Of a stretch of DNA of 64,000 nt, positions 24,460-42,075 are shown piece by piece; position 1 is the first letter of the stretch; the number at the start of each line of letters is the position of its first letter. Origin of the DNA: a bacterium (GTDB lineage Bacteria > Zhuqueibacterota > Zhuqueibacteria > Residuimicrobiales > Krinioviventaceae). The notes beneath the pieces were generated by a model. That model had not been told where the DNA came from, did not search any database, and saw nothing but the letters and a program-made list of their open reading frames with translations. The stretch lies in assembly GCA_963693055.1 (NCBI GenBank), contig OY843751.1:1312001-1376000 (forward strand), given 5' to 3'. Position numbers and translations under genes: made by a program.

Positions 24460-27400
24460 ATGAGAACATTATTAATCACTTTACTGTTATCTCTTTTGTT
24501 AGTTACAATGGTTTTTGCAGATGGCACCCAGCCACCGGGTTTTGGCAATTTGGATGATCCCTACCTGGTTTCTACCCTGGACCATTTGATCTGGATCAGC
24601 ACCAATTCCGGTTCATGGAGTTGCCATTTTAAACAAACCGCAAACATAGATGCTCACAACTCTGCAGCGCTGAATTTTAATGGCAGCGTTTTTTTGGGTT
24701 TCTCTCCTATAGGCGACAATACAACTCCATTCAGCGGTGTCTATGATGGACAGGGTTTCTGGATTAGTGAGCTATATATTAATCGTACAGCTAATAACAA
24801 TCGGGGGCTATTTGGTTATATGGATGGGGTCTGGCCCACTGTGCAAAATCTGGTAGTGAAAAATTCTTATGTTGCCGGTGATGATAATGTTGGCATTCTG
24901 GTGGGAAATGCTCAAGGTCCATCAGAGATTACAAATTGTAGTTCAAACGGTGATGTTGTGGGTGATTATAATTGCGGCGGTCTTGTGGGAACAGTAGGAA
25001 ATTCTGCAACAGTAACAAACTGTTCTTCAACTGCTGACGTTGCCTGCTCTTATAACAAGATAGGCGGATTGGTGGGATCTAACGATGGGGAGATCAACAC
25101 CAGTTTTGCTAAAGGTAATGTTAATGGTAATTCCAGGGTCGGTGGACTAGCTGGGTATTCTGGTGGAACCATTAACAATTGCTATGCTGCAGTAGGATCG
25201 GTTTCCGGTTTAACCTTTATTGGTGGATTACTGGGACGAAATATAGGCGGTACGGTAAATGACTGTTTTGCTGCCTGCTCTGTTTCAGGCAACTCTGATA
25301 TTGGTGGATTGGCGGGGGATAACGATGCAACCATAAATAGGTGTTTTTATGATTCCCAGGTTTCCGGACAATCCGATGTGGGTAAAGGTAGTCCTCAAAA
25401 AACCATCATGATGAAAACATTTTCTACTTTTTATTACCAATATGCTTTTGATTTTGAAAATGAGACAAGAAACGGCTCTGATGATGTTTGGGATATGGAT
25501 TTTTCAGGCGGCGTCAACAGTGGATATCCGTATTTGGCCTGGCAGGATGGTTCAACGGTTTCGCTACCAAACGAACCGGCAGAGCCGAGCGGTAGCGGAA
25601 CAAGCGGCGATCCCTACCAGATTGAAACTCTGGAACATTTGATATGGCTCGCCCGTAGCCCTGGAAAATGGAATTCAACTAAATATTATATTCAAACTGC
25701 GAATATTAACGCCGCTAATGCAAGTTCATGGAACGGTGCGGCCGGTTTCCCTTCTATTGGCAAGTCATCAACAAGTTTTGATGGTAATTATAATGGTCAG
25801 TATCATACCATTAGTGATGTTTATATGAGATATACCGAATGGAATGATGTTGGCGTTTTTGGTAAAACCAATTGCGCTAGTATAAGAAGGTTAGGTGTAA
25901 TAAATGCAAACATTACCGGTAATGATAATGTGGGGGCAGTAATTGGTGATGGATCAGGAGATCATAACCTTTATCTTGGTACTATAGATGATTGTTATTC
26001 TACCGGTGTAGTTAGGGGTGGCAATTATGTAGGTGGAGTAGTAGGTGTTACAAACATATTTTTTGAGACTACCAACTGCTATTCAGCCGCCGATGTTTCG
26101 GGTGATGGCTATGTTGGTGGACTGGTAGGGGCTAACAGGGGAGCTGTATTTACCAGCTTTGCCAGGGGGGATGTTGATGGTTCTTATTTGGTGGGAGGCC
26201 TGGTAGGTTATACCAGCGATGATATAAGGAACAGCTATGCTACCGGTTCTGTTTCGGGGGGGAATAGTGTTGGTGGGCTGATAGGAAGGTTTGGTGACGG
26301 TACTATTTCGCGTTGTTTTTCCGCAGGCAGCGTGTCAGGAACAACAGATGTTGGTGGTTTAATTGGAGACAAGATTGGTACTAATATGTATTCCTGTTTT
26401 TATGATAGTGATGTTACCGGCATGACTGATGAAACAAAAGGGAATCCCAGAACCACTGATGAAATGAAAAATTTTACAACATTTTATAATGCCGGTTGGG
26501 ATTATGTTTCGGAAACAGCAAACGGCACTAATGATCAATGGGACCAGGATTGTTCTGCAAGTATCAATAATGGTTATCCCTACCTGAGCTTTCAGGATGG
26601 TTCAAGCGTGAGCTTGTCACTTTTGCCAGAGGCACCGGATGTTGGAGACGGATCCAGTGGAGATCCCTACCAGATTGCGTCACTTTCAAATCTGTATTGG
26701 TTGAGTTTGAATTCAGAGGAATGGGGTAAATATTTTATCCAGACTGTAGATATTGATGCCTCAGTTACGTCTACAATAGAATGTGGATCAGGTTTTCCGC
26801 CTATTGGTAATGCGTCTACAATGTTTTCCGGTTCATACAATGGGCAGGAACATACAATTGATGGCTTATACATCAGCCGTAATGGTGAAAGCTATGTGGG
26901 ATTGTTTGGGTATACGGATAATGCTATGATTCAAAAGCTGGGGGTAACGTCTTGTAATATTGACGGTTCTACCTATGTTGGCGCCATTGCCGGACGAAAT
27001 AACAATTCTTCGCAAATTTCAAGCTGTTATACTTCCGGTAATATTGAAGGTACCTTAGAAACAGGAGGTATTGTAGGGCGAAATAATACCGATGCAATTA
27101 TCAGGAATTGTTATTCCATGGCATCTGTGGATTGTCCGTCTAGTACTGGTGGTGTAGCGGGAGCAAACTTTTCGGGTTCTGAAATTATTAAAAGTTATGC
27201 ACGGGGTAGCGTAACGGGAATTCTGGATGTTGGTGGTTTGGTAGGAAAAAATAGCGCTATAGTAACAAACTGTTTTTATGATATGCAAACTACTGGTAAA
27301 GTTGACAGTGACAGGGGAACACCTTGTCCAACGGTTGTAATGCATATGCTTGATGTTTTTTTACAGGCAGGTTGGGATCTGGAAGTAGAGACGACAAATG

Positions 27401-28956
27401 GTAGCGCGAATATTTGGGACATGGACCACACCGGTAGTGTTGGAGGATGCTATCCCTATTTGAGCTGGCAGGACGGAGCAAGTGTGTCAATTCCTTCAAA
27501 ACCGGCCTCCGGTGACGGCTCGGTAGGAGATCCTTACCAGATCACGTCTCTTTCCGATCTGGCCTGGCTCAGTTTGTTTACTGAACAATGGTCAAAATTC
27601 TGTGTCCAGACTTCTGATATTGACGCATCATCCGCCAGCAGTTGGTTTAGCGGACTTGGGTATTCTCCCATCGGGAATTTGACAACCCAGTTCACCGGTA
27701 CATATGATGGCCAGGGTAATCTAATTAGCAATCTGACAATGAACAGAGGTGCTTATAGTTGTATTGGACTGTTTGGTTATACTGACGGATCTACAATTAA
27801 GAACCTGGGACTGAAAAATTGTGATATTACGGGGAACCAATATGTAGGGGGGATTGCCGGCAGGAATAGTAACAGCGCTTTAATTGAGTGTTGTTATACA
27901 GCCGGTAGTATAGTGGGAACGTCAGATGCAGGTGGAATTGCCGGTCGGAATAATAATAACGCGATCATTCGTAACTGTTATTCAAAAGCTGATGTTGCCT
28001 GTGCAAACTCTGCTGGCGGATTGGTTGGCTCTAATAACTCTGATTCAGATGTGGCTTACTGTTATTCAATAGGAACAGTCTCTGCAGGAAGCGGTACAGG
28101 CGGACTGATTGGTGAAAATAACGCCGGGGTATCCCATAGTTTTTATAATTTAGAAACTTCGGGGCAATCGGATACCGGCAAAGGAATAGGTATATCTACT
28201 GTGTTAATGCAAAGGCTTGAGACATTTACAACCGTTGGTTGGGATTTTGAAATTGAATCTGGTAATGGTACAAATGATTATTGGGACATGGATTGTTCCT
28301 GCTCTATCAATAACGGTTTTCTGTTTTTGAGTTGGTTGAACGATGGAGATACAGCATTGCCGGTTGAACTTGCTGCTTTTTCAGCCAAATGTGAGAACAC
28401 GCTTGTGATGCTTGAATGGACCACTGCGACTGAATCCGCAAATTTGGGATTTATTCTTGAGCGGCGTGATGAACACAGTGACTGGCAGCAAGTTGCTTCA
28501 TACAAGATGAGTAACGAATTATTGGGACAGGGCACATCTGTAACGGAAACAAGATATGCATACAATGATGATACGGTAAATCCCGGAGAGACCTATACAT
28601 ATCGTCTCTCGGATGTGAATACCAATGGTGAGGTGAATGAACTAGCAACAGTGGCGGTAGAGGTTGTTTATATTCCAACCACTACCCAGTTGTTACCGGC
28701 GTATCCGAACCCGTTCAATCCATCTACAACCATCAGGTATGATCTGGCAAAAGACGGATATGTAAATATTGCGATATATGATATATTGGGCAAGCAGGTC
28801 AGGTCTCTGTATAACGGAGAGCAGACTATAGGGAGTTTTGACCTGCAATGGAACGGTTTGGATGAGCAGGGCAGTCAGGTTTCAAGCGGCATCTTTTTTG
28901 TGCGAATGCAGTGTGGGCAGCAATGCAGTGTACAGAAAATTACATTGATGAAATAA
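24460..28956 (+). CDS. Large secreted GLUG-repeat protein with T9SS/FlgD-type C-terminal domain
   Basis: Signal peptide; four repeated modules (GSG..DPY.I, F.PIG, YDGQ, VGGLVG.N); LPVELAAF and YPNPFNP CTD. Confidence 0.88.
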   Translation: MRTLLITLLLSLLLVTMVFADGTQPPGFGNLDDPYLVSTLDHLIWISTNSGSWSCHFKQTANIDAHNSAALNFNGSVFLGFSPIGDNTTPFSGVYDGQGFWISELYINRTANNNRGLFGYMDGVWPTVQNLVVKNSYVAGDDNVGILVGNAQGPSEITNCSSNGDVVGDYNCGGLVGTVGNSATVTNCSSTADVACSYNKIGGLVGSNDGEINTSFAKGNVNGNSRVGGLAGYSGGTINNCYAAVGSVSGLTFIGGLLGRNIGGTVNDCFAACSVSGNSDIGGLAGDNDATINRCFYDSQVSGQSDVGKGSPQKTIMMKTFSTFYYQYAFDFENETRNGSDDVWDMDFSGGVNSGYPYLAWQDGSTVSLPNEPAEPSGSGTSGDPYQIETLEHLIWLARSPGKWNSTKYYIQTANINAANASSWNGAAGFPSIGKSSTSFDGNYNGQYHTISDVYMRYTEWNDVGVFGKTNCASIRRLGVINANITGNDNVGAVIGDGSGDHNLYLGTIDDCYSTGVVRGGNYVGGVVGVTNIFFETTNCYSAADVSGDGYVGGLVGANRGAVFTSFARGDVDGSYLVGGLVGYTSDDIRNSYATGSVSGGNSVGGLIGRFGDGTISRCFSAGSVSGTTDVGGLIGDKIGTNMYSCFYDSDVTGMTDETKGNPRTTDEMKNFTTFYNAGWDYVSETANGTNDQWDQDCSASINNGYPYLSFQDGSSVSLSLLPEAPDVGDGSSGDPYQIASLSNLYWLSLNSEEWGKYFIQTVDIDASVTSTIECGSGFPPIGNASTMFSGSYNGQEHTIDGLYISRNGESYVGLFGYTDNAMIQKLGVTSCNIDGSTYVGAIAGRNNNSSQISSCYTSGNIEGTLETGGIVGRNNTDAIIRNCYSMASVDCPSSTGGVAGANFSGSEIIKSYARGSVTGILDVGGLVGKNSAIVTNCFYDMQTTGKVDSDRGTPCPTVVMHMLDVFLQAGWDLEVETTNGSANIWDMDHTGSVGGCYPYLSWQDGASVSIPSKPASGDGSVGDPYQITSLSDLAWLSLFTEQWSKFCVQTSDIDASSASSWFSGLGYSPIGNLTTQFTGTYDGQGNLISNLTMNRGAYSCIGLFGYTDGSTIKNLGLKNCDITGNQYVGGIAGRNSNSALIECCYTAGSIVGTSDAGGIAGRNNNNAIIRNCYSKADVACANSAGGLVGSNNSDSDVAYCYSIGTVSAGSGTGGLIGENNAGVSHSFYNLETSGQSDTGKGIGISTVLMQRLETFTTVGWDFEIESGNGTNDYWDMDCSCSINNGFLFLSWLNDGDTALPVELAAFSAKCENTLVMLEWTTATESANLGFILERRDEHSDWQQVASYKMSNELLGQGTSVTETRYAYNDDTVNPGETYTYRLSDVNTNGEVNELATVAVEVVYIPTTTQLLPAYPNPFNPSTTIRYDLAKDGYVNIAIYDILGKQVRSLYNGEQTIGSFDLQWNGLDEQGSQVSSGIFFVRMQCGQQCSVQKITLMK

Positions 28957-28990
28957 GAACGTGTTATTTTAGTCAGTATTGAGAGGAAAA

Positions 28991-31900
28991 ATGAAAAAAA
29001 TATATTCTATTCTGTTAATAGTTATTTTTCTTACAACAGGCCTTTATGCCGACGGCACCCAGCCGCCGGGTTCCGGCACATCTGATGTTCCTTATGAGGT
29101 ATCCACTCTGAACCATTTATTATGGATCAGTACCAATTCCGGTTCGTGGAGTGCCTGCTTTGAACAGACAGCAGATATCAATGCCTCAGCAACAGCCACC
29201 TGGAACAGTGACGGAGAAGGCGGTTATGAAGGCTTCTCCCCGATTGGGAAAATTCTTGACTATTTTGAAGGCTCATACGATGGTCAGGGATACGCAATAG
29301 AGGGTCTGTATATTAACCGGACCAGTGATTATGTTGGATTGTTTGGGGCTATTGAAGGTGGCTCTGTCGAAAACCTAATCCTGAAAAACGTAAATATTAC
29401 CGCAGAAGCGATGGTCGGCGGACTGGCTGGATACACTGTAGATGCAGTATTTACAAATTGCTCCGTCTCAGGGTCGGTTTCATGTATCAATTCGTATGTA
29501 GGTGGACTGATCGGAGACATAACGCTTTCGACCCAGATTAACGAATGCCGGTCATTATGCAGCGTTTCCGGTACCTTCAATGTAGGCGGGTTGGTTGGAT
29601 GTACTTATAACTCTACGGTTATTAAAAATAGTTACGCCCGGGGCAGTGTTGACGGTACTCTCAGCAGTGTTGGTGGACTGCTTGGATATAATTCGTATGG
29701 CTGCCAGGTTAACAATTGTTACGCCACAGGCAGCGTTTCCGGTGACAGCCAATATGGTGGCCTGGTGGGCGAAAATAATGGAACTGTGAGCAATAGTTTT
29801 TACGATCAGGAAACCACCGGGCAGGACGATACGGGCAAGGGCACACCGAAAACCACTGAGGAAATGAAAACACTTTATACCTTTACAAATGCTGGTTGGG
29901 ATTTTGATAACGAGACAACTAACGGAACAGATGATGTCTGGGATATCGATTATATCAACTCATCAAATATCGGTTACCCCTATCTGAGTTGGCAGGATGG
30001 CGCCACAGTCGCCCAGCCTTCAGGCCCTGACGGAAGCGGTACATCCAACGATCCTTACCAGATCAGTAACCTGACAGATCTCTGTTGGTTAAGCCAGAAC
30101 CCGTCAAGCTGGGACAAATATTTTATCCAGATTAATGATATTGATGCTTCCAGTACGAGTTCCTGGAGTGGAGGTTTTGGATTCTCCCCTATTGGGAACA
30201 ATAATGACTATTTTGAAGGCTCATACGATGGCCAGGGATACGCAATAGAAGGTTTGTATATTAACCGGTCCAGTAGTTATGTTGGATTGTTTGGGGATAT
30301 GATGGGTACAGGACCTGTAAAAAACCTGATCATGAGAAACGTAAATATTACCGGAGACACGTTTGTCGGCGGACTGGTTGGGCAACAAAATTACAAAGTT
30401 ATTACGAATTGTTCCGTTACAGGGTCGGTTTCAGGTGCCGGGTATGTAGGTGGAGTGGTTGGGCTCGAGCAGTATTCCGCCGAGGTTAACGAATGCCGGT
30501 CTTTATGCAGCGTATCCGGTACCTTCTATGTAGGCAGTCTGGTTGGAGGTGCTCGTTTCTCTGCGGTTATTAACAATAGTTACGCCCGGGGCAGTGTTGA
30601 CGGTACTAACAGCTATATTGGTGGACTGCTTGGAGGGAATGCTGATGGCTGCCAGGTTAACAATTGTTACGCCACAGGCAGCGTTTCCGGTGACAGCCAA
30701 GTTGGCGGCCTGGTGGGCGAAAATGAGGGAACGGTGAGCAATAGTTTTTATGACCAAATAACAACCGGGCAGGACGATACGGGTAAAGGCAGTCCCAAGA
30801 CAACAGCAGAAATGAAAGATTATACAACATTTATCAACGCCGGGTGGGACTATGTGGCGGAAACTGTTAATGGTTCAGATGATGATTGGGACCAGGACTG
30901 TTCTGAAAGTATTAATAACGGTTACCCCTACCTGAGCTGGCAGGACGGCGCTTCAGTTTCCCTCGCTGTTTTGTCAATTGTACCCTCGGCCGGGGATGGT
31001 TCCAGCGGTGATCCGTACCAAATTGCCACTATAAATAACCTGTACTGGCTTTCTCAAAACAGCGATCAATGGGGACAAAATTATATCCAGGTAGCTAACA
31101 TTGACGCGTCCGTTACCGGCAGCCTGGACAGCGGATCAGGTTTCTCAAGTATTGGCTCAGATGTAATAAACTTTAGCGGTACGTATGATGGTCAGGGGTA
31201 CAACATTGATAATTTATATATTAACCGGTCGGCCTCTAGTTTTATCGGTCTTTTCGGATATACAAACGGCGCCGGGATCAGCAATATTGCCCTGACCGGT
31301 GCAAACATAACCGGCGACCAGTATGTGGGTGGAATAGCCGGGGTAAGCTCTTCAGGCCAAATTGTCCAATGTTATACCAAAGGCAGTATCTCTGGTAATT
31401 ATAATGTGGGTGGTGTTAGCGGTTGTAATAACAATACTACAATACGCAACTGCTATTCCACGGCAGATATCTCCGGCACCACCAACACTGGTGGCCTGAC
31501 AGGACTAAATGGTGTCACATCAACCATTGATAAATGTTACGCCCGGGGCAGCGTCTCCGGTACCACCAACACCGGCGGACTGGTAGGGGCCAATTCCGCC
31601 ACCGTGAGCAATAGTTTTTTTGACAGCGAAACCACCGGACAAAGCGATAATAGCGGCAAAGGAGTTCCCAAATCCACGCAAGCCATGCAGACATTCAGCA
31701 CTTTTTTCGATGCCGGGTGGGACCTTGAGGTTGAGACAGGTAACGGCAATAATGATATCTGGGACATGGACCATACCGGCAGCTTTGGTGGCTGTTATCC
31801 TTATCTCAGTTGGCAGGATGCTTCAGATGTATCTATTCCGGCAAAACCGGCAGACGGTGATGGTTCCAGCGGTGCCCCGTACCAGATCGCAACCCTGAGT

Positions 31901-34333
31901 GATTTGGCCTGGATCAGTCTGTTCGCCAACAAATGGGGCCTGCACTTTATTCAAACCGCGAATATCGATGCGTCTACAACCGGCACCTGGTTTAACGGCT
32001 CCGGATTTTCACCCATCGGTAATAGTAGCACCGAATTTACCGGCTCTTATGACGGCCAGTTATATAGCATTTCCGGATTGACCATCAACCGGTCATCAAC
32101 CAGTGATGTCGGATTGTTTGGCCGTACCAGCGGCGCCATTCTGGAAAATATTGCAGTGATCAATGCGGATATTACCGGCAATGACGCTGTGGGTTGTCTG
32201 GTGGGTAACAATAGGGCCAGCTCCACAGTAAGCAAAAGTTATTCTACCGGTACTGTCAGCGGTAACATAAATGTTGGGGGTATTACGGGTTTGAACTATA
32301 ATGCCAGCCTGGCGCAGTGTTATGTTACGGCCGGTGTTAGCGGCGCCTCGGATGTGGGCGGACTGGTGGGCTCTAATTATATTTCCGCCACAACACAAAA
32401 ATGTTATGCCCGGGGTGACGTTACCGGCACATCCAACATTGGCGGACTTGCTGGCTCGAATGCAGGTGGAACGGTCAGCAGATGTTATGCAACCGGTGAG
32501 GTCTCGGGCTCATCCAATACCGGCGGACTGGTGGGTAATAACAATAATACAGTTACTGATAGCTTTTACGATGAATGGACCTCTGGGTGTAGCGATACCG
32601 GTAAGGGAGAACCTGTAAATACAGTATTTATGAAAATCCACTTGACGTTTACTGATGCCAATTGGGACTTTGCCACAGAGACCGCCAACGGCAGCAACGA
32701 TGTCTGGGACATGGATTACAACCAGGCAATAAACAGCGGTTACCCCTACCTGAGCTGGCAGGATGGCAGTAGTGTATCACTCAACTGGACAGCAGCAGCG
32801 CCTGCTGACGGTGAGGGCACCAGCGGCGATCCCTACCAGATTGCCAATCTGGAAAATCTTGCCTGGTTGTCACTGTATGCCAATCACTGGGACAAATATT
32901 ATATACAAACCGCAAACATTGATGCCTCGGCAACCAGTACCTGGAATGGAGGTGTAGGATTTTCACCCATCGGTAACAATTCTGTATGGTTTACCGGCAA
33001 TTACGACGGTCAATCTTACACTATCACCGGCCTGACCATCGATAGGTCAGGTACCAATAATATAGGTCTGTTTGGTTATACCAACGATGCCGTCATAAAA
33101 AATCTTGGGGTCTTGAGTGTTAATATTACCGGCAACAATAATGTGGGCAGTTTGATAGGCAATTTAAACGCCGGTACTGTAAAAAAGTGTTACTCTAACG
33201 GTAGTGTTTCCGGCAATGCCAAGGTTGGTGGTCTGGCAGGGTCCAACAACAGTGGGCTGCTTGGTCAGTGTTTTGCCAATACTGGTGTTTCGGGCGCTAC
33301 CGATATAGGTGGACTGGTGGGATACAACAACTATTCCTCTGATGTTAATAACTGTTATGCCAAAGGCAGTGTTTCCGGCACATCAAATGTGGGCGGTCTT
33401 GCCGGTTCAAATGTCTCATCAGCCATCCTGAATAAAAGTTATGCCAAAGGCAGTGTCTCCGGTTCTTCTGCCTCGGGTGGTCTGGTGGGTTTTAATGCTG
33501 GCGATGTGATTTTTTGCTTTTACGATTTAGAAACCACAGGGTGTAACGATACCGGCAAAGGCATACCCAAGTCTACAACAGATATGAAAATCCTGTCCAC
33601 ATTTACGGATGCGGACTGGGATTTTGAAGCAGAAACGGCTAACGGCAACAATGATTTTTGGGACCTGGATTGCAGTTGTTCCATAAACAATGGCTATCCC
33701 TTTCTCTCATGGTTAAATGGAGAAGATGTGGCCCTGCCCGTGGAATTGTACAGCTTTACAGCTGTTTGTGATAATGGCATAGTGATACTTGAATGGCAAA
33801 CCGCCAGTGAACGCGACAACCTGGGTTTTATACTTGAGCGACGAGATGAAAACAGCAACTGGCAGGAAATCAATTCTTACAAGATGTGTCAGACTCTGCA
33901 AGGGCAGGGAACAACTCCCTCGGAAACGGAATATTCCTACATTGATGATACGATTTCTCCCGGAAATACCTATACCTACCGTCTTTTGGATGTAAATACC
34001 AGTGGTGCGATAAATGTACTCGCATCTATATTGGTTAAAGTGGAATCTATTCCAACGACAACGCAATTATACCCTGCGTATCCGAATCCGTTCAATCCAT
34101 CTACAACCATCAGGTATGATCTGGCAAAAGACGGATATGTGAGTATTGCTGTATATGATGTGCTGGGCAGGCAGGTCAGGTCACTGTTTAACGGTGAGCA
34201 GGCTGCGGGGAGTTTTGATCTGCAATGGAACGGTCTCGATGATCTGGGTTGCCAGGTTTCGAGCGGTATTTATCTCGTTCGTTTTCAGACTGGTAATTTT
34301 ACCCGGACCCAAAAGGTTATGTTTGTAAAATAG
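28991..34333 (+). CDS. Large secreted GLUG-repeat protein with T9SS/FlgD-type C-terminal domain (paralog)
   Basis: Same architecture with five modules; LPVELYSF and YPNPFNP CTD. Confidence 0.88.
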   Translation: MKKIYSILLIVIFLTTGLYADGTQPPGSGTSDVPYEVSTLNHLLWISTNSGSWSACFEQTADINASATATWNSDGEGGYEGFSPIGKILDYFEGSYDGQGYAIEGLYINRTSDYVGLFGAIEGGSVENLILKNVNITAEAMVGGLAGYTVDAVFTNCSVSGSVSCINSYVGGLIGDITLSTQINECRSLCSVSGTFNVGGLVGCTYNSTVIKNSYARGSVDGTLSSVGGLLGYNSYGCQVNNCYATGSVSGDSQYGGLVGENNGTVSNSFYDQETTGQDDTGKGTPKTTEEMKTLYTFTNAGWDFDNETTNGTDDVWDIDYINSSNIGYPYLSWQDGATVAQPSGPDGSGTSNDPYQISNLTDLCWLSQNPSSWDKYFIQINDIDASSTSSWSGGFGFSPIGNNNDYFEGSYDGQGYAIEGLYINRSSSYVGLFGDMMGTGPVKNLIMRNVNITGDTFVGGLVGQQNYKVITNCSVTGSVSGAGYVGGVVGLEQYSAEVNECRSLCSVSGTFYVGSLVGGARFSAVINNSYARGSVDGTNSYIGGLLGGNADGCQVNNCYATGSVSGDSQVGGLVGENEGTVSNSFYDQITTGQDDTGKGSPKTTAEMKDYTTFINAGWDYVAETVNGSDDDWDQDCSESINNGYPYLSWQDGASVSLAVLSIVPSAGDGSSGDPYQIATINNLYWLSQNSDQWGQNYIQVANIDASVTGSLDSGSGFSSIGSDVINFSGTYDGQGYNIDNLYINRSASSFIGLFGYTNGAGISNIALTGANITGDQYVGGIAGVSSSGQIVQCYTKGSISGNYNVGGVSGCNNNTTIRNCYSTADISGTTNTGGLTGLNGVTSTIDKCYARGSVSGTTNTGGLVGANSATVSNSFFDSETTGQSDNSGKGVPKSTQAMQTFSTFFDAGWDLEVETGNGNNDIWDMDHTGSFGGCYPYLSWQDASDVSIPAKPADGDGSSGAPYQIATLSDLAWISLFANKWGLHFIQTANIDASTTGTWFNGSGFSPIGNSSTEFTGSYDGQLYSISGLTINRSSTSDVGLFGRTSGAILENIAVINADITGNDAVGCLVGNNRASSTVSKSYSTGTVSGNINVGGITGLNYNASLAQCYVTAGVSGASDVGGLVGSNYISATTQKCYARGDVTGTSNIGGLAGSNAGGTVSRCYATGEVSGSSNTGGLVGNNNNTVTDSFYDEWTSGCSDTGKGEPVNTVFMKIHLTFTDANWDFATETANGSNDVWDMDYNQAINSGYPYLSWQDGSSVSLNWTAAAPADGEGTSGDPYQIANLENLAWLSLYANHWDKYYIQTANIDASATSTWNGGVGFSPIGNNSVWFTGNYDGQSYTITGLTIDRSGTNNIGLFGYTNDAVIKNLGVLSVNITGNNNVGSLIGNLNAGTVKKCYSNGSVSGNAKVGGLAGSNNSGLLGQCFANTGVSGATDIGGLVGYNNYSSDVNNCYAKGSVSGTSNVGGLAGSNVSSAILNKSYAKGSVSGSSASGGLVGFNAGDVIFCFYDLETTGCNDTGKGIPKSTTDMKILSTFTDADWDFEAETANGNNDFWDLDCSCSINNGYPFLSWLNGEDVALPVELYSFTAVCDNGIVILEWQTASERDNLGFILERRDENSNWQEINSYKMCQTLQGQGTTPSETEYSYIDDTISPGNTYTYRLLDVNTSGAINVLASILVKVESIPTTTQLYPAYPNPFNPSTTIRYDLAKDGYVSIAVYDVLGRQVRSLFNGEQAAGSFDLQWNGLDDLGCQVSSGIYLVRFQTGNFTRTQKVMFVK

Positions 34334-34458
34334 TATCATATGACCAGAGGAGAAAAAGAAATTTATAAAACCCCCTAAAAATACAACGGAGCGTCAGATC
34401 ATTAATAAATTTGGTGATCTGTCATTCTGAAAGTAATAAAAGGGAAATATAAAAGCAA

Positions 34459-35283
34459 CTAATTGTTCTTTGAAAGATTCAACTGACTCCTTTGATTTTT
34501 AATTTTATCAGGCAAAAGATCAACATATTGTTGTATGACACGTTTGGAAAGTCTTGCCAGCTGGCTGATTTGATCAAGGTTTTTAATGTCATGCTTCCAA
34601 AGTAATTCAACACGATGGTAATCTTTGATATACCTGTCAACCGCTTCGTTGCTGTGTTTGGTTTTCAAAGCGATTTCGGGAGTGAGATATCCCTCAAGAT
34701 ACAGAGTGATAATTTCGCGTTTATGAGTAATAGCGCCGGAAAGATCATGGATGTTGCCACGCGTTGGTAAGAGATGCCCTTCTTTTTGGATTTCATTTAC
34801 ATATTTACTGACAACGGCATCACAGACACCGAGTAACATAGCCAGGTCAAGTTGAGTAAGCAGAGCACCTTGATCAAAAGCTTCATCAACCCAACGTTTG
34901 AGGCGTCTTTTCCTTAAAGTTTTGGAATCAAAACCATGCGCGATATGAGAAGTATCCTGATCAGTAATGAAAGAGAGGACAACGGGTTTCATTCGGGTAG
35001 CGGCAATACTTTTTCCGCGTTTGGGGTATTCATCGACAGGAACAGCCATCCAGACGAGTTGCCCATAGTGAATATGGTGCAAGTCATCATCAATAGAGGA
35101 GACAAGGAAATAGTCATCAATGATTTTAAGGATATCATCAATGATGGCATTGGCAGTGATGGCTCCTTTGTCATAGCCATAGCTATTCAAAAAGTTGTAC
35201 AGTAGTAACTGCTTGAGATCTTTATCTTTAAGTCGTCTCATTTTTTTGAGTTGAATTTGTTCTTTAGTCAAAGGTTTACTCAT
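34459..35283 (-). CDS. DUF1670-family protein, B type
   Basis: EAFDQGALLTQLDLAMLL, PTRGNIHDL...THK, HS...RY; ATG 35283 with GGAGG RBS; frame stays open upstream to 35337. Confidence 0.8.
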   Translation of the reverse strand: MSKPLTKEQIQLKKMRRLKDKDLKQLLLYNFLNSYGYDKGAITANAIIDDILKIIDDYFLVSSIDDDLHHIHYGQLVWMAVPVDEYPKRGKSIAATRMKPVVLSFITDQDTSHIAHGFDSKTLRKRRLKRWVDEAFDQGALLTQLDLAMLLGVCDAVVSKYVNEIQKEGHLLPTRGNIHDLSGAITHKREIITLYLEGYLTPEIALKTKHSNEAVDRYIKDYHRVELLWKHDIKNLDQISQLARLSKRVIQQYVDLLPDKIKNQRSQLNLSKNN

Positions 35284-36115
35284 TTTCTTTGCCTCCTGAT
35301 AGATGTTGAGGAATGGATTTTTTTTTCGCGTCGCCACCAGGTTCCGCAGGAGATAACAGATCGTTTAATCGCGTATTGTTTTGTTGAAGATAGGTTTGGT
35401 AGAGTTGGATATACTCGCGCACCAGGCGGTCGGATTTCTTTGCAATGAGTCGAATCTGGTTCGGAGAGAAATTTTCCTTGTATAAAAGGGCGATCTGCAT
35501 AAAGTCAGCGAGGTAACGTTTGATGCTGGTTTCAGAATGATTGGTTTTTTGTTCTATTTCTGAAAAGGTATAACCTTTAAGATACAGATCAATAATGATG
35601 GTTTTATGAGACAGTCCGGGACCCATGTCATGTTTCATACCTCGTGTCATGATAAACATACCGTGATGACGGAGATGATAAATGTCACGTTTAACAGTGG
35701 CCGGACTGGTGGTTAAAAGCATTGCCAGGTCTTCATAGCTGAGTAAAGCACCCTGATCATAGGCTTGTCGAGTCAGACGGGCGATCCGGTGTCGTCTAAG
35801 TCCGGCAAGGCCATAATTAGCCAGGGCTTGCAGATCTGTATTAAAGTCAATTAGTTTGAGACGGACCGTAAGCTTTCGGGTTAATCTGATATGTTTGCCG
35901 GCTGGTTCTTCAGCGGCAACAGCTTCATAAGCGACTTCACCTCCTGATAATGAAATGTTGGAATGTTCCTGAAAGTATTGGTCAAATTGTTGATAGTAAG
36001 CTTCGGCAATAATAGGAGTCAAATTGAAATCCTGAGACAGTTTTTGGACAATAGCGTTTTTAGCTGTCTTGGATTCGAGTCTTTTTAAACCATAATTATT
36101 TTTAACATCTGCCAT
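35276..36115 (-). CDS. DUF1670-family protein, A type
   Basis: QAYDQGALLSYEDLAMLL, TRGMKHDMGPGLSHK, HS...RY; AAGGAG RBS. Confidence 0.8.
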   Translation of the reverse strand: MADVKNNYGLKRLESKTAKNAIVQKLSQDFNLTPIIAEAYYQQFDQYFQEHSNISLSGGEVAYEAVAAEEPAGKHIRLTRKLTVRLKLIDFNTDLQALANYGLAGLRRHRIARLTRQAYDQGALLSYEDLAMLLTTSPATVKRDIYHLRHHGMFIMTRGMKHDMGPGLSHKTIIIDLYLKGYTFSEIEQKTNHSETSIKRYLADFMQIALLYKENFSPNQIRLIAKKSDRLVREYIQLYQTYLQQNNTRLNDLLSPAEPGGDAKKKSIPQHLSGGKENE

Positions 36116-36215
36116 AAGAATCTCCTTATTTCTGTTTTTATTAAAACAATGATTCCTATGGTCATATGCACTAAACTTTAAATAATTATATTTTGATAAA
36201 GGTAAGGGGCAAAGC

Positions 36216-36255
36216 GTGCCAGGGATACTTATTGCATCACTGGCACTTGTTTTAT
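36216..36255. terminator. Stem-loop, probable ancestral terminator between the convergent flanking genes
   Basis: GTGCCAG...CTGGCAC stem with T-rich tail, in the 95-bp spacer between the two DUF1670 units. Confidence 0.5.
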
Positions 36256-36399
36256 TTACGTTTAGGAAATATTTCCGGTAGGTTGTTTTTAAGATTAGAA
36301 CATTTATTCATTTTTTCAGCTAACGAAAGGAGCTCGTAGGGCGACTGGAGTTAGCTGAAAAACAATGACAACCTAACCTATTAATTCCTTTTCAAATTT

Positions 36400-37215
36400 T
36401 CAAGTTTTCTTTTGTATTAAATCTGAATGATAATGATAAACCAGATCACGATATTGTAATATTGTACTCCGTCCTAATCCGGTTATTCTTACCATTTCCA
36501 TTAAATTAAAACCTTTTTCCAATAATGATTTTACGTTCTTGTAACTCTTTAAATACCGACTCGTTGATTCAATTGTGTGATTTGTAATCCGGGCGATATC
36601 CGGTTCGGGATATCCCTGCTCGTACAAATCTATAATTGCGGCTTTATGCGTCGGCTTACTGCCCTGATCCAGCATCATTCCTTTAGTCGGCAATATATCA
36701 TCATGCGTTTCATGATAAATTGTCATATACCGACCAATAGTGTTTAATGAGCGATTCAACAATACACTGAGTTCTGCACCTGTCAACCAGCCGCCCTGTT
36801 CTGCCGCACTCTTGCATAACCGCGCCATTACTTTAATATCCCGTTCTGTTTGTTTTTCATAATTAGCACTGCCATCTTTTGGGGGATAAGAATAATGGCT
36901 TTTGATACGATTGTCAATATCCGCATCTGTTACCAACGGTAGCACAACTGTCTGAACCTCATAATCTTCCGCTTTTGTGCCATAACTTGGCTTTCGGTTT
37001 GTCGCTTTGGTTGTCCGCCAGATAATCTGACCAAAACTTTTCTTTTCCAGCTCTGGATAAAATTCATTTTGCAATGCGACAATATCTTCTGCAATCATCC
37101 GGATGACTTTGTGGCTTCCCAGCATTTTATAATTTTCTTCCAGTAATCGAATAATCGCATTTTGAAAGCTACGCTTAGCTATTGATTCATAACGATTTAA
37201 AGGCTTAGTCTTCAT
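36400..37215 (-). CDS. DUF1670-family protein, B type
   Basis: GQIIW, SAAEQGGWLTGAELSVLL, PTKGMMLDQG...THK, HT...RY. Confidence 0.78.
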   Translation of the reverse strand: MKTKPLNRYESIAKRSFQNAIIRLLEENYKMLGSHKVIRMIAEDIVALQNEFYPELEKKSFGQIIWRTTKATNRKPSYGTKAEDYEVQTVVLPLVTDADIDNRIKSHYSYPPKDGSANYEKQTERDIKVMARLCKSAAEQGGWLTGAELSVLLNRSLNTIGRYMTIYHETHDDILPTKGMMLDQGSKPTHKAAIIDLYEQGYPEPDIARITNHTIESTSRYLKSYKNVKSLLEKGFNLMEMVRITGLGRSTILQYRDLVYHYHSDLIQKKT

Positions 37216-38032
37216 CGATCCCCTCCTTGGTTTGTTTTTTTTTCGAGGGGTATAACACCTTTAATTGCTCCAATAACTCTACATAGATCGGCGGCCATTT
37301 GTCACCCTGTTTATGATGCTCAAAAATATCCAGGTACTCACGGGTCAAACGCTCACTTTGGCCTAATAACCGACTGATCTCTTTGATATCCTGCATACCA
37401 TGATTCAGTAATAACAACAGCCTGCCAAAGCTGCACACATATCGTTTTATTGAAAACGCGCTATGACGACTTTTACGAATAATTGCATCGTATGTGTCTC
37501 CCTGCAAATACAGTTCAATAATGTGGCTTTTGTGTGACAAGCTCCGACCGATGTCATGGTCTGTTCCGCGCGTGTGAATAAAGTTGCCATCAGTCTGCAA
37601 AGACTTTATATCCTGGCGTACAGTGCGGCTCGTAACCTGGAGGATCCGGGCCAAATCCTCTTGTGTCAAAGAACCTTCCTGATCCCAGGCTTCTTCGGTC
37701 AATCGTAAGACCTTTAACTGGCGCAGTGCCTTGGGACCGCTTTCTTTTAATACATTTAAATCTTCTACACCGGCATCCAGTGTTAACTCTACTTCTTTCA
37801 ATTCCTGCTCACCCAGGGGCTTGCCATGTTTTGCCTTGGTGGATGCGCAGATATATTTTATTTTACCAACTGTCTGGGGAACCTCGCCAAATAAACACTG
37901 CTTGGCTAAATCCAATATCCCTTTACTTTCTGCCGGTGATAATTCAAATTCTTTTCGTAAAGAATTGATGAATACTTGCTCGGGTGTTTTTTCTAATATC
38001 CTGTCATACAAACTACTACGAGTATTGTACAT
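37205..38032 (-). CDS. DUF1670-family protein, A type
   Basis: EEAWDQEGSLTQEDLARIL, TRGTDHDIGRSLSHK, HS...RY; GGAGG RBS. Confidence 0.8.
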   Translation of the reverse strand: MYNTRSSLYDRILEKTPEQVFINSLRKEFELSPAESKGILDLAKQCLFGEVPQTVGKIKYICASTKAKHGKPLGEQELKEVELTLDAGVEDLNVLKESGPKALRQLKVLRLTEEAWDQEGSLTQEDLARILQVTSRTVRQDIKSLQTDGNFIHTRGTDHDIGRSLSHKSHIIELYLQGDTYDAIIRKSRHSAFSIKRYVCSFGRLLLLLNHGMQDIKEISRLLGQSERLTREYLDIFEHHKQGDKWPPIYVELLEQLKVLYPSKKKQTKEGIDED

Positions 38033-38088
38033 TTGTCCTCCGGTAAGTTTTGAAATCTTTGTTTGACTTCCGGTTACTTCTAGTAAAT

Positions 38089-38117
38089 ACTATATGAAAT
38101 AACCGCCTTTTTTCCAA
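38089..38117 (-). promoter_or_regulatory. Candidate sigma70 promoter inside the right end of element 2
   Basis: Minus strand TTGGAA-N17-TATAGT upstream of the 38032 start. Confidence 0.35.
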
Positions 38118-38137
38118 AACCTACCGGAAAATTTTCC

Positions 38138-40645
38138 TTATTTCACAAACAAAGCTTTTCTGATTTTAATACAATTTCCTGTTTCCAGTTTGTAAAAATA
38201 TATGCCGCTTGAAAGATCCTCCGCATTCATCATGTAGGTGTATACTCCCGCTCCTTTTTGTTCGTTCACAAGTTCACGAACTTTTTCCCCCAATACATTA
38301 TACAGGGTCAGTTTTACATTTGATTTGTAGGGTACAGCATAGTTGATTGTTGTTGTCGGGTTAAAGGGATTGGGATAGTTTTGCTCTAATCTAAACCGAG
38401 TGGGGATTGCCGTATCCTTCTCTCTGGAATCGATGCGAGTATAAACAGGAGGCTCTTCCGGTACCCAGTCATAGCTGAAACGAGGATTAGATGTTTTTGC
38501 AAAAATGTTTTCAAGGGTATATTCGGCAGCTTCTTCATCGGATAGTTGTCTGGATATAGGAGTTCTATATGTTGTATCCGCACCTTCACCGTAACAGTTG
38601 TATTCTGCGTATAATGCCGGTGGCACATTCCAGGCCGACCATCCCACTAGTGAAAGAGCTGCAGGCTCTTGCGTATTGATGAATACCGTGCGTGGCGCTC
38701 CCTGCCAGGGGCGACCCAGCACAAAAGTATAAATCTCTTTGCCATCAAACCCAATATTATCATTACTAATGATACAATCTTTGAATACATAACCGAATTT
38801 GGAATCTGCTTCTGTGGCTGCTGCTGTCAGGGCTCCACCGTTTCGGTTGATGTGAATTTCGCAGCTATCAAACAGCACAATATTACGTCCGAAAATAAAA
38901 TCAACCGATCCTTCAATGTAGCAGTTTTTCATATAGGTCCTGCCTGTACCCCGGCCACCCCAGGTATAGTAAGTGTCCTGATATCCGAGCAGTCTGCAGT
39001 TATAATAGCTTTGCCGGTCTCCGTTTACACGTAGAGCAACCGCCTGTTGGTCTTCAAAACTACCGTCATTCATTACAGTGTTCTGAAAAGTAATATTAAC
39101 TGCTGTAAAGTCATCCGCATCAATTGCTGTGCTGTACGAATTGGAGGTGCCGCCTGCTTTGCCAGCATAATCATCAAATGTGAGTATGGTACTGTCCGCA
39201 TTTTCACCCCGAAGCGTTACATTGAGCTTTTCTCTGTCAAGTAGCAGCTTTTCGTAATATACTCCATTTTTGATATAAATATAATAATTACCGGTATATT
39301 TGTCCGGAATGTTATCAAACGCTTGCTGAACAGTAGTATAATCTCCATTGCCCGAATGGTCAACCACTTTATAGACATCCGGTTGGGGAGCCAGAGTAGT
39401 GAATTCGCGGACCGATCCATAACCGGTCCCGGCGCTATTGGTAGCATACGCACAGACGTAATAGGTTGTGGTTTCCTGCAAGGGGTAGATCAAGCTGTTA
39501 AAGGCTGACATGCCGTCACCTTCTATGTTATAACTGTCATCCAGAGTAGGGGAGCCGGTAGTATTCCACACCAGACCTTTCGCGGTAATTTCGGCGCCGC
39601 CCCAGTCAATAACACTGCCGCCGCATTCAGCGGTTTCTACACGTACATTAGAAACACCGGCAGTAAATACCCAGGGAACATCTAATGAATCAAGGGTTTT
39701 GAATGTAATTTCTTCTCCATAAGCAGTACCTGCGGCATTTATAGCATATGCTTTGGCAAAATATTCTGTACCGGGAGTTAGGCCCGTCAAATGACTTGTA
39801 AAGGCACCAGAGCCGGTTCCATCTGATGTGTGATTGTTTTCGATAGTGGGGGAACCTGTGGTATTCCAAACAACACCACGTTGAGTAATTTGTGCGCCAC
39901 CATCAGATTCAATATCACCTCCGCAGGTGCAATAAGTGGTGGAAACAAATGTAGCATCTTCCGTAGAGAGACTGGCTAAATCGTATTCAATTTCACCTTC
40001 CACAGTGCCACTAATTTTGACATCTTTTAATAAAAGATATTTACCGGTAAGGCCGCTGGTTTGATTGTGGACCCAGGGATAGACTCGCAGGTAAAAAGTT
40101 CTATCGCCAGGGATCTGTACATTTAAATTCAAGGATACTGTATGCAACGAGTCGGCACGTAATATATATCCGTTGCTTTCAAGCACAAGAGAAGCAGGGA
40201 TTTCTTCAAATGTATTGAAATCAGGATCCTGTGAGTAAAGAATACGGGCTTTAAGATAGTTGGTATAGTCCGCTCCAATTTTTAAAGAAGTGTTTTTGAT
40301 TGTGAGATCTGTGCCGCTCATTGCGGATACGGCAAACTGTGTATAAACCGATTCAATGATGTCGGTTTGATTCTCCGGCCATTGTGTGGCTCCACCCGGG
40401 GGACGGTTGTCGCTGCGTTGGCTGTTTTTGGCACCGGTGTAACTATTTACGCGCATACCAACGAATTGCTGATCCACTGCATCTATAGGGCCGGAGGTCA
40501 AAACGGTTAGTCCGCTACCTTCTGTCGCTGGATCACTCAACTCCCACAATGCATATGCAGAGGTGGTTTCATTTACCTCTTGTCCAAAACTATTACCGGT
40601 AATGAAAAGAGTACAAAATAACAAAAGAAATGTTTGTCGATTCAT
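38138..40645 (-). CDS. Secreted pectinesterase (CE8) with FN3-like domains and T9SS-type CTD
   Basis: GDYTTVQQA, QAVAL, GYQDT, GSVDFIFG, LGRPW motifs; two CGG...RGVVW repeats; NYPNPFNP. Confidence 0.92.
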   Translation of the reverse strand: MNRQTFLLLFCTLFITGNSFGQEVNETTSAYALWELSDPATEGSGLTVLTSGPIDAVDQQFVGMRVNSYTGAKNSQRSDNRPPGGATQWPENQTDIIESVYTQFAVSAMSGTDLTIKNTSLKIGADYTNYLKARILYSQDPDFNTFEEIPASLVLESNGYILRADSLHTVSLNLNVQIPGDRTFYLRVYPWVHNQTSGLTGKYLLLKDVKISGTVEGEIEYDLASLSTEDATFVSTTYCTCGGDIESDGGAQITQRGVVWNTTGSPTIENNHTSDGTGSGAFTSHLTGLTPGTEYFAKAYAINAAGTAYGEEITFKTLDSLDVPWVFTAGVSNVRVETAECGGSVIDWGGAEITAKGLVWNTTGSPTLDDSYNIEGDGMSAFNSLIYPLQETTTYYVCAYATNSAGTGYGSVREFTTLAPQPDVYKVVDHSGNGDYTTVQQAFDNIPDKYTGNYYIYIKNGVYYEKLLLDREKLNVTLRGENADSTILTFDDYAGKAGGTSNSYSTAIDADDFTAVNITFQNTVMNDGSFEDQQAVALRVNGDRQSYYNCRLLGYQDTYYTWGGRGTGRTYMKNCYIEGSVDFIFGRNIVLFDSCEIHINRNGGALTAAATEADSKFGYVFKDCIISNDNIGFDGKEIYTFVLGRPWQGAPRTVFINTQEPAALSLVGWSAWNVPPALYAEYNCYGEGADTTYRTPISRQLSDEEAAEYTLENIFAKTSNPRFSYDWVPEEPPVYTRIDSREKDTAIPTRFRLEQNYPNPFNPTTTINYAVPYKSNVKLTLYNVLGEKVRELVNEQKGAGVYTYMMNAEDLSSGIYFYKLETGNCIKIRKALFVK

Positions 40646-40863: not shown

Positions 40864-42075
40864 GAAACATCTGAAATATTGGATTTTTTCATATTGAACT
40901 AATAAATTGAGTTCAATTTTCCAAAGAGAATGAAATATTTATAAAATCTATAACATTTAAAATTGTTCTTTGACAAAATTTACTATCATTACTCTAATAC
41001 ATAGGTTATATACCTACGAAATGGCTCAAGTGGTTAATGTAACCATACGCCTGATATTATAAACCCATGCTGCAATCACAAATTCAAAACGATTTCGGCC
41101 CATATCATAATAACTGCACCGATCATAATCTAATACTTGCTTCATAAAGGCAAACGGTCTTTCAACTGCATTCCGAACTTTAGATAATTGCTTATTTCTT
41201 TTTACCTGCTTTGATGTCAAATTTCGGTTTCTATATCCTTTATCAAGAATGCCGCAATAGACTCCTTTGCCTCGCAGGTTGCACTTGCGGGCTTTGTTCG
41301 TGTAACCTTTATCTGCGAACACCGCATTTTCTTTTTCTGTTATCAGATCCGGAAAAAGATTTGTGTCGTGAATACTTGCGCTGGTAAACTCTACAGAATG
41401 AATAATATCACTGTCCAAATCTGTACCAATATGGCCTTTGTAGCCATAATGCGTTTTGCCACGTTTCTTTGTGAAATCTGCATCACGATCACGCTTGCTT
41501 CCTGGTTTCGCTTGTGCTTGTTTTATAGTTGCATCAACAAGTGTTCCTTTGCCAACGATCAGACCCATTTTTTCAAGCTGTTTGTTGAATTGCCGGAACA
41601 GTATTTTATCAAGACCAAGACGGGCAAATAGTTCACGATATCGGCAGATAGTGGTTTCGTCAGGGATTGCATCCGCACTGGTCAGTTCCAGAAACAATTG
41701 AAAACTACGTCGATCCGCAATCTCTTCTTCCAGGCGAGGATCGGATAAACCATAGATACGTTGTAATAAAAAACAACGAACAATAACTAACAAATCAAAT
41801 GACGGCTTGCCTGCATTTGATTTTCTGGTTTTTGATTGTTCAATACGTTCTTCAATGGGTTCAAGTAAATTTTGCCAATCAATTTTTTCTTTGATAATTT
41901 CCAGAGCTTGTTTGCTTTGGGTTTTTATATGCTTTTTGAAATTTTCATTTGCTGCTGTGGTAAACAAGTCTTCATTGTTTATTCTATTGCGACCCATGTA
42001 AAACTCCAGTTTTTTTTATCATACAGCAAATTAGTAAATTATTACCTTTGATTCTAATAATATTTCAGAGGTTTC
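40864..42075 (-). mobile_element. IS5-family insertion sequence (1212 bp)
   Basis: TIR GAAAC(A/C)TCTGAAATATT, 16/17 match; AATTA duplicated at 40859-40863 and 42076-42080. Confidence 0.9.
41026..41997 (-). CDS. IS5-family transposase
   Basis: LSDPRLEE, IPDETT, VDAT, GYKGH, ADKGY, R..VERPF. Confidence 0.93.
   Translation of the reverse strand: MGRNRINNEDLFTTAANENFKKHIKTQSKQALEIIKEKIDWQNLLEPIEERIEQSKTRKSNAGKPSFDLLVIVRCFLLQRIYGLSDPRLEEEIADRRSFQLFLELTSADAIPDETTICRYRELFARLGLDKILFRQFNKQLEKMGLIVGKGTLVDATIKQAQAKPGSKRDRDADFTKKRGKTHYGYKGHIGTDLDSDIIHSVEFTSASIHDTNLFPDLITEKENAVFADKGYTNKARKCNLRGKGVYCGILDKGYRNRNLTSKQVKRNKQLSKVRNAVERPFAFMKQVLDYDRCSYYDMGRNRFEFVIAAWVYNIRRMVTLTT

Follow-up and report, generated by a model that had tools for sequence, protein, structure and literature searches.

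The window analysed here is a 64,000-nucleotide (nt) stretch of contig OY843751.1, and all coordinates given below are positions within it; relatives in other genomes carry G and L labels, with G000 denoting the genome of the window itself. Two units lie back to back in this stretch, flanked by two convergent host genes, and each unit contains only two genes, overlapping and on the minus strand, which both encode DUF1670 proteins. Judged from sequence, the two units are insertion-sequence-type elements, being compact multi-copy units with sharp ends for which an orthologous empty site exists. The DUF1670 proteins likely bind dyads near the element ends; insertion is likely also their work, through a conservative exchange of strands at a core of two bases that is carried by the element and is in most cases identical to the target. 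A preliminary description of the locus had proposed conservative insertion resembling that of phage attachment (att) sites; this is likely right in kind but placed wrongly, the probable exchange point being a 2-bp core in the last codon of the host gene and not the palindromes on which that description had centred.

Host gene 1 (28979-34333, plus strand) encodes a GLUG-repeat protein with a C-terminal sorting domain of the type IX secretion system (T9SS) type; its last codon is AAA at 34328-34330, and the first two bases of this codon (34328-34329, plus strand) form the host-side core dinucleotide AA, which varies between copies in other lineages. Unit 1 (34330-36181, 1852 bp) starts directly after this dinucleotide and supplies the stop codon TAG. 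Its stop-restoring end (34330-34351, plus strand) consists of ATAG, a 12-bp imperfect dyad (34334-34345) that contains the first CATATG, and the inner arm of a subterminal inverted repeat. The orfB gene (34459-35280, minus strand) encodes 273 aa from its ATG, with an open frame extending to 35337; it lies in the +1 frame relative to orfA (35276-36115, minus strand), which encodes a 279 aa protein predicted to have a winged helix-turn-helix (HTH) and a tandem HTH. Near the end of orfA an A9 run (35318-35326, minus strand) is a candidate slippage site for the formation of an A-B fusion. The far end (36154-36181, plus strand) is made up of the inner arm, a 12-bp dyad (36160-36171) with the second CATATG, an 8-bp spacer, and the element-side core AA (36180-36181). 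The 74 bp that follow (36182-36255) are the original host stretch between the convergent genes, comprising the rest of each old stop codon and a hairpin.

Unit 2 (36256-38141, 1886 bp) begins with its far end (36256-36284, minus strand), which contains the element-side core AA (36256-36257), a 7-bp spacer, a 12-bp dyad (36265-36276) and the inner arm; orfB (36400-37215, minus strand, 271 aa) and orfA (37205-38032, minus strand, 275 aa) follow, with an A9 run near the orfA end (37235-37243, minus strand) as a candidate slippage site. The stop-restoring end (38118-38141, minus strand) features ATAA (38141-38138), a 12-bp dyad (38137-38126) and the inner arm. Host gene 2 (38138-40645, minus strand) encodes a pectinesterase-domain protein with a T9SS-type sorting domain; its host-side core dinucleotide is AA (38142-38143, minus strand), and unit 2 supplies its stop codon TAA. 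Read in the direction of the host gene, the layout of both elements is ATAG or ATAA, a 12-bp imperfect dyad and an inner arm, then at the other end an inner arm, a dyad, a spacer of 7-8 bp and AA; the direction of the element genes relative to these ends is opposite between units 1 and 2. Just inside the inverted repeat of unit 2 is a sigma-70-like promoter match (38089-38117, minus strand; 9 of 12 positions), which is a consensus match only, and the promoter scan gave no match above chance at the end of unit 1. Elsewhere in the window, positions 24460-34333 are occupied by two tandem large GLUG-repeat proteins with T9SS-type tails, and an unrelated IS5-family transposase lies at 41026-41997.

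The complete genome (6.5 Mb) carries six identical copies of unit 1 and seven copies of unit 2, six of the latter being at least 99.7% identical and one a 92.7% variant; these account for all 26 DUF1670 matches in the genome. The unit 2 copy of the window differs from the majority copy at four positions (36451, 37090/37628 and 38052). The palindromes listed in the preliminary description, CATATG at 34337-34342 and 36163-36168 in unit 1 and GGAAATATTTCC at 36265-36276 with GGAAAATTTTCC at 38126-38137 in unit 2, were all confirmed, and their assignment to element ends rather than to chance holds, as they are present at the ends of all six and all seven genomic copies. The long palindromes that arise when the inner ends are joined are also real, and are a trivial consequence of the ends being inverted repeats. 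Alignment of the copies shows that the flanks TAGTAT, CACTA and AGGAAA, which had been taken for an attB-like host target, are invariant in every copy together with 4-10 further element bases beyond them; flanks identical in all copies belong to the element, and the boundaries therefore lie further out, at 34330-36181 and 36256-38141.

The orthologous locus in the same-genus genome G001 is empty of both units, with one AAA TAA at each site and no palindrome. Aligned to the window minus both units at the revised boundaries, this locus scores 274.5 with short gaps only; with the boundaries of the preliminary description the score is 244.5, and each of the two sites then requires a gap longer than 20 bp. 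A scaffold of G031 similarly holds an empty AAG TAA tail next to a filled junction. A crossover at the palindromic cores is contradicted by the empty ortholog, which has neither palindrome, and the targets do not mimic the half-sites of the element, since element and target have in common only AA plus RTAR. The dyad centres of unit 2 (TA versus AT) do not differ among the seven copies, so they are not an exchanged core. Joins of the attB or attP type are absent from this genome when up to five mismatches are allowed. The expectation of att-like conservative joining without a random target-site duplication fared better and is supported.

Of the 13 genomic copies, 11 lie directly after a gene with a T9SS-type tail, one, a unit 1, is found behind a unit 2 that occupies such a tail, and one is off-target; the sorting domain was confirmed for both host genes of the window. 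The insertion point falls between the second and third base of the last codon, and both codon and stop are restored by the first four bases of the element. The genome holds 241 T9SS-type tails, 159 of which end in Lys. The same targeting is displayed by unit-1-type elements in Ignavibacteria, Poribacteria, Cloacimonadota and others, and also by unit-2-type elements. Two DUF1670 pairs, L024 (G046) and L028 (G057), have perfect TGCCA-WW-TGGCA dyads, longer outer arms and no adjacent T9SS tail; they constitute a second target class, and not all DUF1670 elements target T9SS tails. A left-end search of 301 genomes of another class added little, and no relative of the elements was found among the plasmids searched.

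Several gene tails carry more complex arrangements. At G000:C1:507846-511583 a unit 2 lies within the stop-restoring end of a unit 1, both being stacked at one gene tail, and comparable nested stacks are seen in L008, L189 and L303. Orphan stop-restoring ends of unit 2 are found at four T9SS-type tails (G000:C1:1730470, 3844052, 5975671 and 5684726), where 17-47 bp are followed by divergent sequence; these four ends were likely retained because they supply the stop codon of the host gene. An orphan far end of unit 2 at another T9SS-type tail (G000:C1:333463) is joined to the host gene at a short microhomology, and left-only relics of a similar kind occur in relatives. In the Poribacteria loci L098, L110 and L112 the stop-restoring end is swapped at the same base for an identical foreign sequence in all three copies; the foreign sequence is possibly the 3' end of a group II intron inserted in the dyad.

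The two-base core is best seen in 102 physically paired unit-1-type copies, deduplicated by their flanks; the search pattern missed unit-2-type ends, which were counted by hand. On the gene side all 102 pairs have A as third base, whereas the far side has G (53), A (48) or T (1); as the third base differs between the two sides, the junctions have at most 2 bp in common. The dinucleotides on the gene and far side are AA/AA in 98 pairs and AG/AG, CA/AA, AG/CG and AA/TG in one pair each. For unit-2-type elements they are AA/AA in the seven genomic copies and in seven relatives, and CG/CG in one; further mismatches are a deleted copy (AT/AA) and a relic with a single dyad (AA/GG). A short core with some tolerance of mismatch, as had been suggested, is consistent with the three mismatched copies among 102 pairs; its proposed location at the palindrome is not upheld.

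Other lineages differ in this dinucleotide. All seven far ends of G327 carry CG, followed by a variable third base and a stop; its five gene-side junctions carry CG (three) or AG (two), and all are Arg codons. Tail matches in G327 numbered 43, and removal of two non-stop rows left 41 stop-ended tails, by hand count 23 Lys and 12 Arg, so that occupied Arg tails are 5/5 against a background of 12/41 (p=0.0045). In G150 the gene-side junctions are CA, CC and CA and the single far end is CA; 12 of its 24 empty stop-ended tail matches are Lys (27 rows, three dropped). One pair of elements that are 97.5% identical consists of an AA/AA and an AG/AG copy. Within the genome of the window, occupied tails carry AA in 11/11 cases against 148/230 for empty tails (p=0.018). 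From these junctions the dinucleotide appears to behave as an element-borne, lineage-specific core (AA, CG, CA or AG) that steers target choice; the simplest reading would be that the far-side dinucleotide belongs to the element and the gene-side dinucleotide to the host, with a match usually required.

The main rival to such a core, considered rather improbable, is staggered-cut transposition with a true 2-bp target duplication of the IS630-like kind, in which lineages would have a dinucleotide preference and the mismatched pairs would have mutated later. Duplication would account for the same dinucleotide on both sides in 99/102 pairs and for the single copy at the empty site; it is, however, difficult to reconcile with mismatched pairs that include the double mismatches AA/TG and AA/GG, with the far ends of G327 being CG in 7/7 yet AG on the gene side in 2/5, and with a switch of preference between elements that are 97.5% identical. 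The inverted repeats are moreover subterminal and asymmetric, and the element proteins match no DDE family. A longer duplication of 5 bp (AAATA) was ruled out, the third base differing between the junctions in 54/102 copies; coupling sequences of the Tn916 type were ruled out by the constant far-end spacer among copies.

In a ranking of inverted repeats across the region the arms of unit 2 come first (21 nt, 90%), and the palindromes are the centres of the 12-bp dyads within these subterminal inverted repeats of about 21 bp. In both units one dyad centre is 10 bp from the cut, and the dyad centre of the opposite end is 15-16 bp from it. The central two bases of the dyad vary between relatives and are constant between copies, as would be expected for the uncontacted spacer of a dimer binding site; the palindromes are likely protein-binding dyads, in keeping with the earlier suggestion, which is supported as a reading of the dyads. 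CATATG itself is not a conserved palindrome, as TA is found at both dyad centres only in 24/102 unit-1-type pairs and AA/TT in 55.

Gene tails in relatives also hold solo relics of 25-26 bp, which consist of both outer ends and one dyad. Eight matches to such sites were found in 6/101 genomes, seven of them at T9SS-like tails, with three more in five of those genomes; unit-1-type solo-dyad sites are two among five matches (167 genomes). The relics, several of them diverged, are L288-L295, L297, L299 (AA/GG), L309, L310 and L315 (an Arg tail with CG/CG). A relic with the dinucleotides AA (gene side) and GG (far side) corresponds exactly to the attB-like join of unit 1; the join of the preliminary description thus exists in relatives in a different role, as a solo relic that keeps both outer ends. 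The full model of that description, in which a circle with a palindromic attP recombines at the dyad centre with an attB that mimics half-sites, draws on the existence of these sites, which indicates that exchange or deletion across dyads happens; as the main route of insertion it is nonetheless refuted by the empty ortholog without a dyad. Solo sites are absent from this genome and from five genomes that hold 53 element ends, they presuppose a prior full insertion, and the dyad centres are not palindromic in most relatives; as the principal mechanism, recombination at the dyad centre is accordingly considered very improbable, and as a secondary route it is rather unlikely. Because the solo relics retain both outer ends and the displaced tail, they formed after a normal full insertion. 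The symmetry of a dyad makes the two dyads of an element direct repeats as well. Loss of the interior between the dyads would be a later decay route; the relics could have arisen by copy-choice deletion, known from Tn10, or through some second activity of the element.

DUF1670 has 1230 representatives at 50% identity; the family spans several bacterial phyla and is also found over the cut-off in the archaeon Methanosarcina acetivorans, a control genome. The four proteins of the window have 29-38% mutual identity, and family scans match them only to DUF1670 and to weak HTH models. The confident AlphaFold model of orfA (predicted local distance difference test score, pLDDT, 89) opens with helices, followed by a short beta element, a winged HTH and HTHs arranged in tandem. 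Residues R113, Q121, R158, H170, H193, Y201 and Y235 are each conserved in 90-96 members of a set of 97 sequences from both paralogues (R158 in 96, Y201 in 94, H170 and Y235 in 92 each, H193 in 90); unit 2 orfB has K in place of R158. The spacing of R158, H170, H193 and Y201 resembles that in box II of tyrosine recombinases, whose catalytic set is R-K-H-R-H/W-Y. Identity as a tyrosine recombinase gained no support: hhalign against a shallow alignment of six genomic tyrosine recombinases gave a probability of 0.2% and such enzymes are absent from the rows of the fold searches. Foldseek returned no match to the PDB at E <=0.001 for the whole protein or for residues 144-255; the VIA fold search gave only winged-HTH, TrpR-like and Mor-like rows (Z <=6.7), with resolvase rows covering HTH-sized stretches only (Z 4.9), and the viral structure library gave a single row (E 7.6e-4, TM 0.14). 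Sequence searches of the PDB, PHROGs and the ESM Atlas (best 0.80 and 0.76) produced generic HTH leads only.

An A-run heptamer (A6+) is located in the A/B overlap in 73/85 rows, the 85 including about six spurious or broken pairs; both window units have orfB in the +1 frame, whereas many relatives have it in the -1 frame. The conserved A-run suggests that transcriptional slippage may produce a fusion. Natural proteins with two (P0145-P0248) or three (P0124, P0131, P0134, P0139) DUF1670 repeats exist, and the first repeat is degenerate in many of the two-repeat proteins. Complex prediction for A with B gave 0.47 against 0.00 for the best control, which is weak support; in calibration of this score, the mark was reached at 0.60 or under by 18/157 solved complexes and by both of the 2 passing mismatches.

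In the proposed mechanism, A and B, or the A-B fusion made by slippage, would act as a pseudo-dimer on each dyad. The ends of the element would be joined into a circle with the core between the two dyads, and the target would be cut directly behind the second base of its last codon; the host dinucleotide would stay on the gene side and the element's own dinucleotide would land on the far side. The chemistry is somewhat doubtfully assigned to a conserved tyrosine, with R158, H170, H193, Y201 and Y235 as candidate residues. A competing proposal is that the DUF1670 pair only binds and pairs DNA, and that a Xer-type recombinase or topoisomerase of the host cuts and joins it; HTH-type domains without a recognised active site would suit such a role, and six tyrosine-recombinase-like open reading frames (ORFs) are present in the genome. 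The conservation of R158, Y201, H170, Y235 and H193 in both paralogues, like that of catalytic residues, and the spread of DUF1670 over several bacterial phyla and Methanosarcina make a host enzyme improbable. DUF1670 may instead represent a new recombinase class, a proposal held at a confidence somewhat below even; such a class would consist of HTH-type domains and possess an R-H-H-Y centre. Its A-B pseudo-dimer would recognise two 12-bp dyads, find the coding tails of genes for secreted proteins without a guide RNA, and use a two-base core set by the last two bases of the donor, so that the same protein could be retargeted from Lys-stop to Arg-stop or Gln-stop tails. No paper on DUF1670 or PF07900 was found in the full-text library searched, which excludes ISfinder and subscription journals.

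A number of observations weigh against insertion by DUF1670 proteins at an element-borne core. The 99/102 pairs with equal dinucleotides on both sides also fit a 2-bp duplication; full-length paired mismatches number only three, and the polarity of AA/TG could be either. The elements of G327 and G150 are collapsed in the assemblies, which means that left junctions cannot be physically linked to right ones; taken alone, the difference between the two sides in G327 lacks significance (p=0.15). The symmetric inter-dyad spacer of the predicted circle is 5-7 bp and not 2 bp. No junction of a circle, the intermediate form of IS110/IS1111 elements, was detected in four contig sets, the genome or viral contigs, all of these being assembled contigs, which drop rare forms; right-left junctions seen in relatives were rejected as circles, since another element has inserted there in nested fashion. 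The structure and fold searches recognised no catalytic fold, and a weak match does not make the fold new. A short motif alone may not suffice for recognition of the gene tail: a target matrix built from 97 targets, including a few sites of this genome, yields 1431 genomic sites at a score of at least 5, of which 181 are T9SS tails, and separates tails from the rest of the genome only at high scores (29/29 sites are tails at score 20; real targets scored 4.3-29.8).

A guide RNA would offer one account of tail recognition. If recombination were directed by RNA as in IS110/IS1111, gene tail and core would be read by a guide encoded in one of the non-coding ends of the element; strong site specificity would agree with this, as would asymmetric subterminal repeats with a two-base core, which are described for IS1111 and IS621 (PMC11187229, PMC11208160). 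The non-coding ends of 33 diverse elements have in common only 22-28 terminal bases, however, and vary widely in length; there is no Rfam match and no further conserved non-coding stretch in these elements, although a poorly conserved RNA could escape such a comparison, and no IS110-family transposase was matched. Guidance by RNA is regarded as the least credible of the alternatives, and hardly to be expected.

If protein-directed insertion by DUF1670 is right, it would represent transposition chemistry outside the DDE, DEDD, HUH, serine and tyrosine enzymes, and would give DUF1670 a function. The elements would follow a harmless-landing strategy in which the most repeated coding tail of T9SS-bearing genomes is used and the host protein remains whole. 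Orthogonal DNA insertion could also profit from an integrator that is compact, leaves little scar and takes its landing codon from two bases of the donor.

Among known systems, IS607 elements use serine transposases, make no target duplication, and have an end dinucleotide that matches an invariant GG in the target, with exchange read as occurring over 2 identical bp (PMC6188088). The DUF1670 elements are similar in the lack of duplication and in the 2-bp identity of end and target, which here is deduced from junctions. IS607 itself possesses a serine recombinase domain, lacks terminal inverted repeats and shows little target specificity other than for GG; the DUF1670 elements, in contrast, have 21-bp subterminal inverted repeats, gene-tail specificity and lineage-variable cores, and a serine recombinase domain was not matched by Pfam or NCBIfam in their proteins. 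The IS1111/IS110 family is described as having asymmetric subterminal inverted repeats, a short core, no true duplication and site-specific targets (PMC11187229, PMC11208160). The extensions outside the repeats of IS1111 are 7 and 3 bp, similar to the 4 and 9-10 bp outside the dyads here; unlike in that family, there is no DEDD transposase match and no conserved guide-RNA region, and two paralogous HTH-type proteins are present instead.

Serine integrases such as phiC31 pair their att sites by the central dinucleotide; changing it yields orthogonal pairs, with a low level of recombination between mismatched sites (PMC3936721). The proteins are unrelated to those described here, where the target lacks a dyad and the dinucleotide does not lie midway between the dyads. 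For IntDOT, homology of just 2 bp along one edge of its 7-bp overlap is enough (PMC3809561). The 5-7 bp dyad spacer of the DUF1670 elements, with the matched 2 bp at its edge, is comparable; they differ from IntDOT in capturing no coupling sequence, the far-end spacer being the same in 19/20 G147 copies, with a truncated one as the exception, and in having no sequence, profile or fold match to tyrosine recombinases. A tyrosine recombinase would also be expected to have an overlap of 6-8 bp between symmetric binding sites in both partners, whereas the target here has no dyad and only 2 bp are common. The nearly precise excision of Tn10, in which the interior is lost between short direct repeats in the ends by copy-choice, as PMC12524634 describes, offers a precedent for how the solo-dyad relics could form; with inverted repeats as short as about 21 bp in the present elements, an enzyme-made origin of the relics may hold.

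With regard to transposases of other kinds, no IS630-type DDE family was matched, and the neighbouring IS5 was picked up by the same scans; in contrast to IS630 and other DDE elements, the repeats here are subterminal and asymmetric, and the mismatched pairs speak against a true duplication. The HUH/Y1 transposases of IS200/IS605, elements with single-strand hairpin ends, gave no family match either, and the dyads are imperfect in most ends. Members of the IS3 and IS1 families have two overlapping ORFs and an A-run that could make a fusion; here, however, both ORFs are paralogues, the second is in the +1 or -1 frame, and no DDE domain is present. On the evidence of sequence comparison, the DUF1670 elements do not qualify as members of the IS607, IS110/IS1111, DDE or HUH families.

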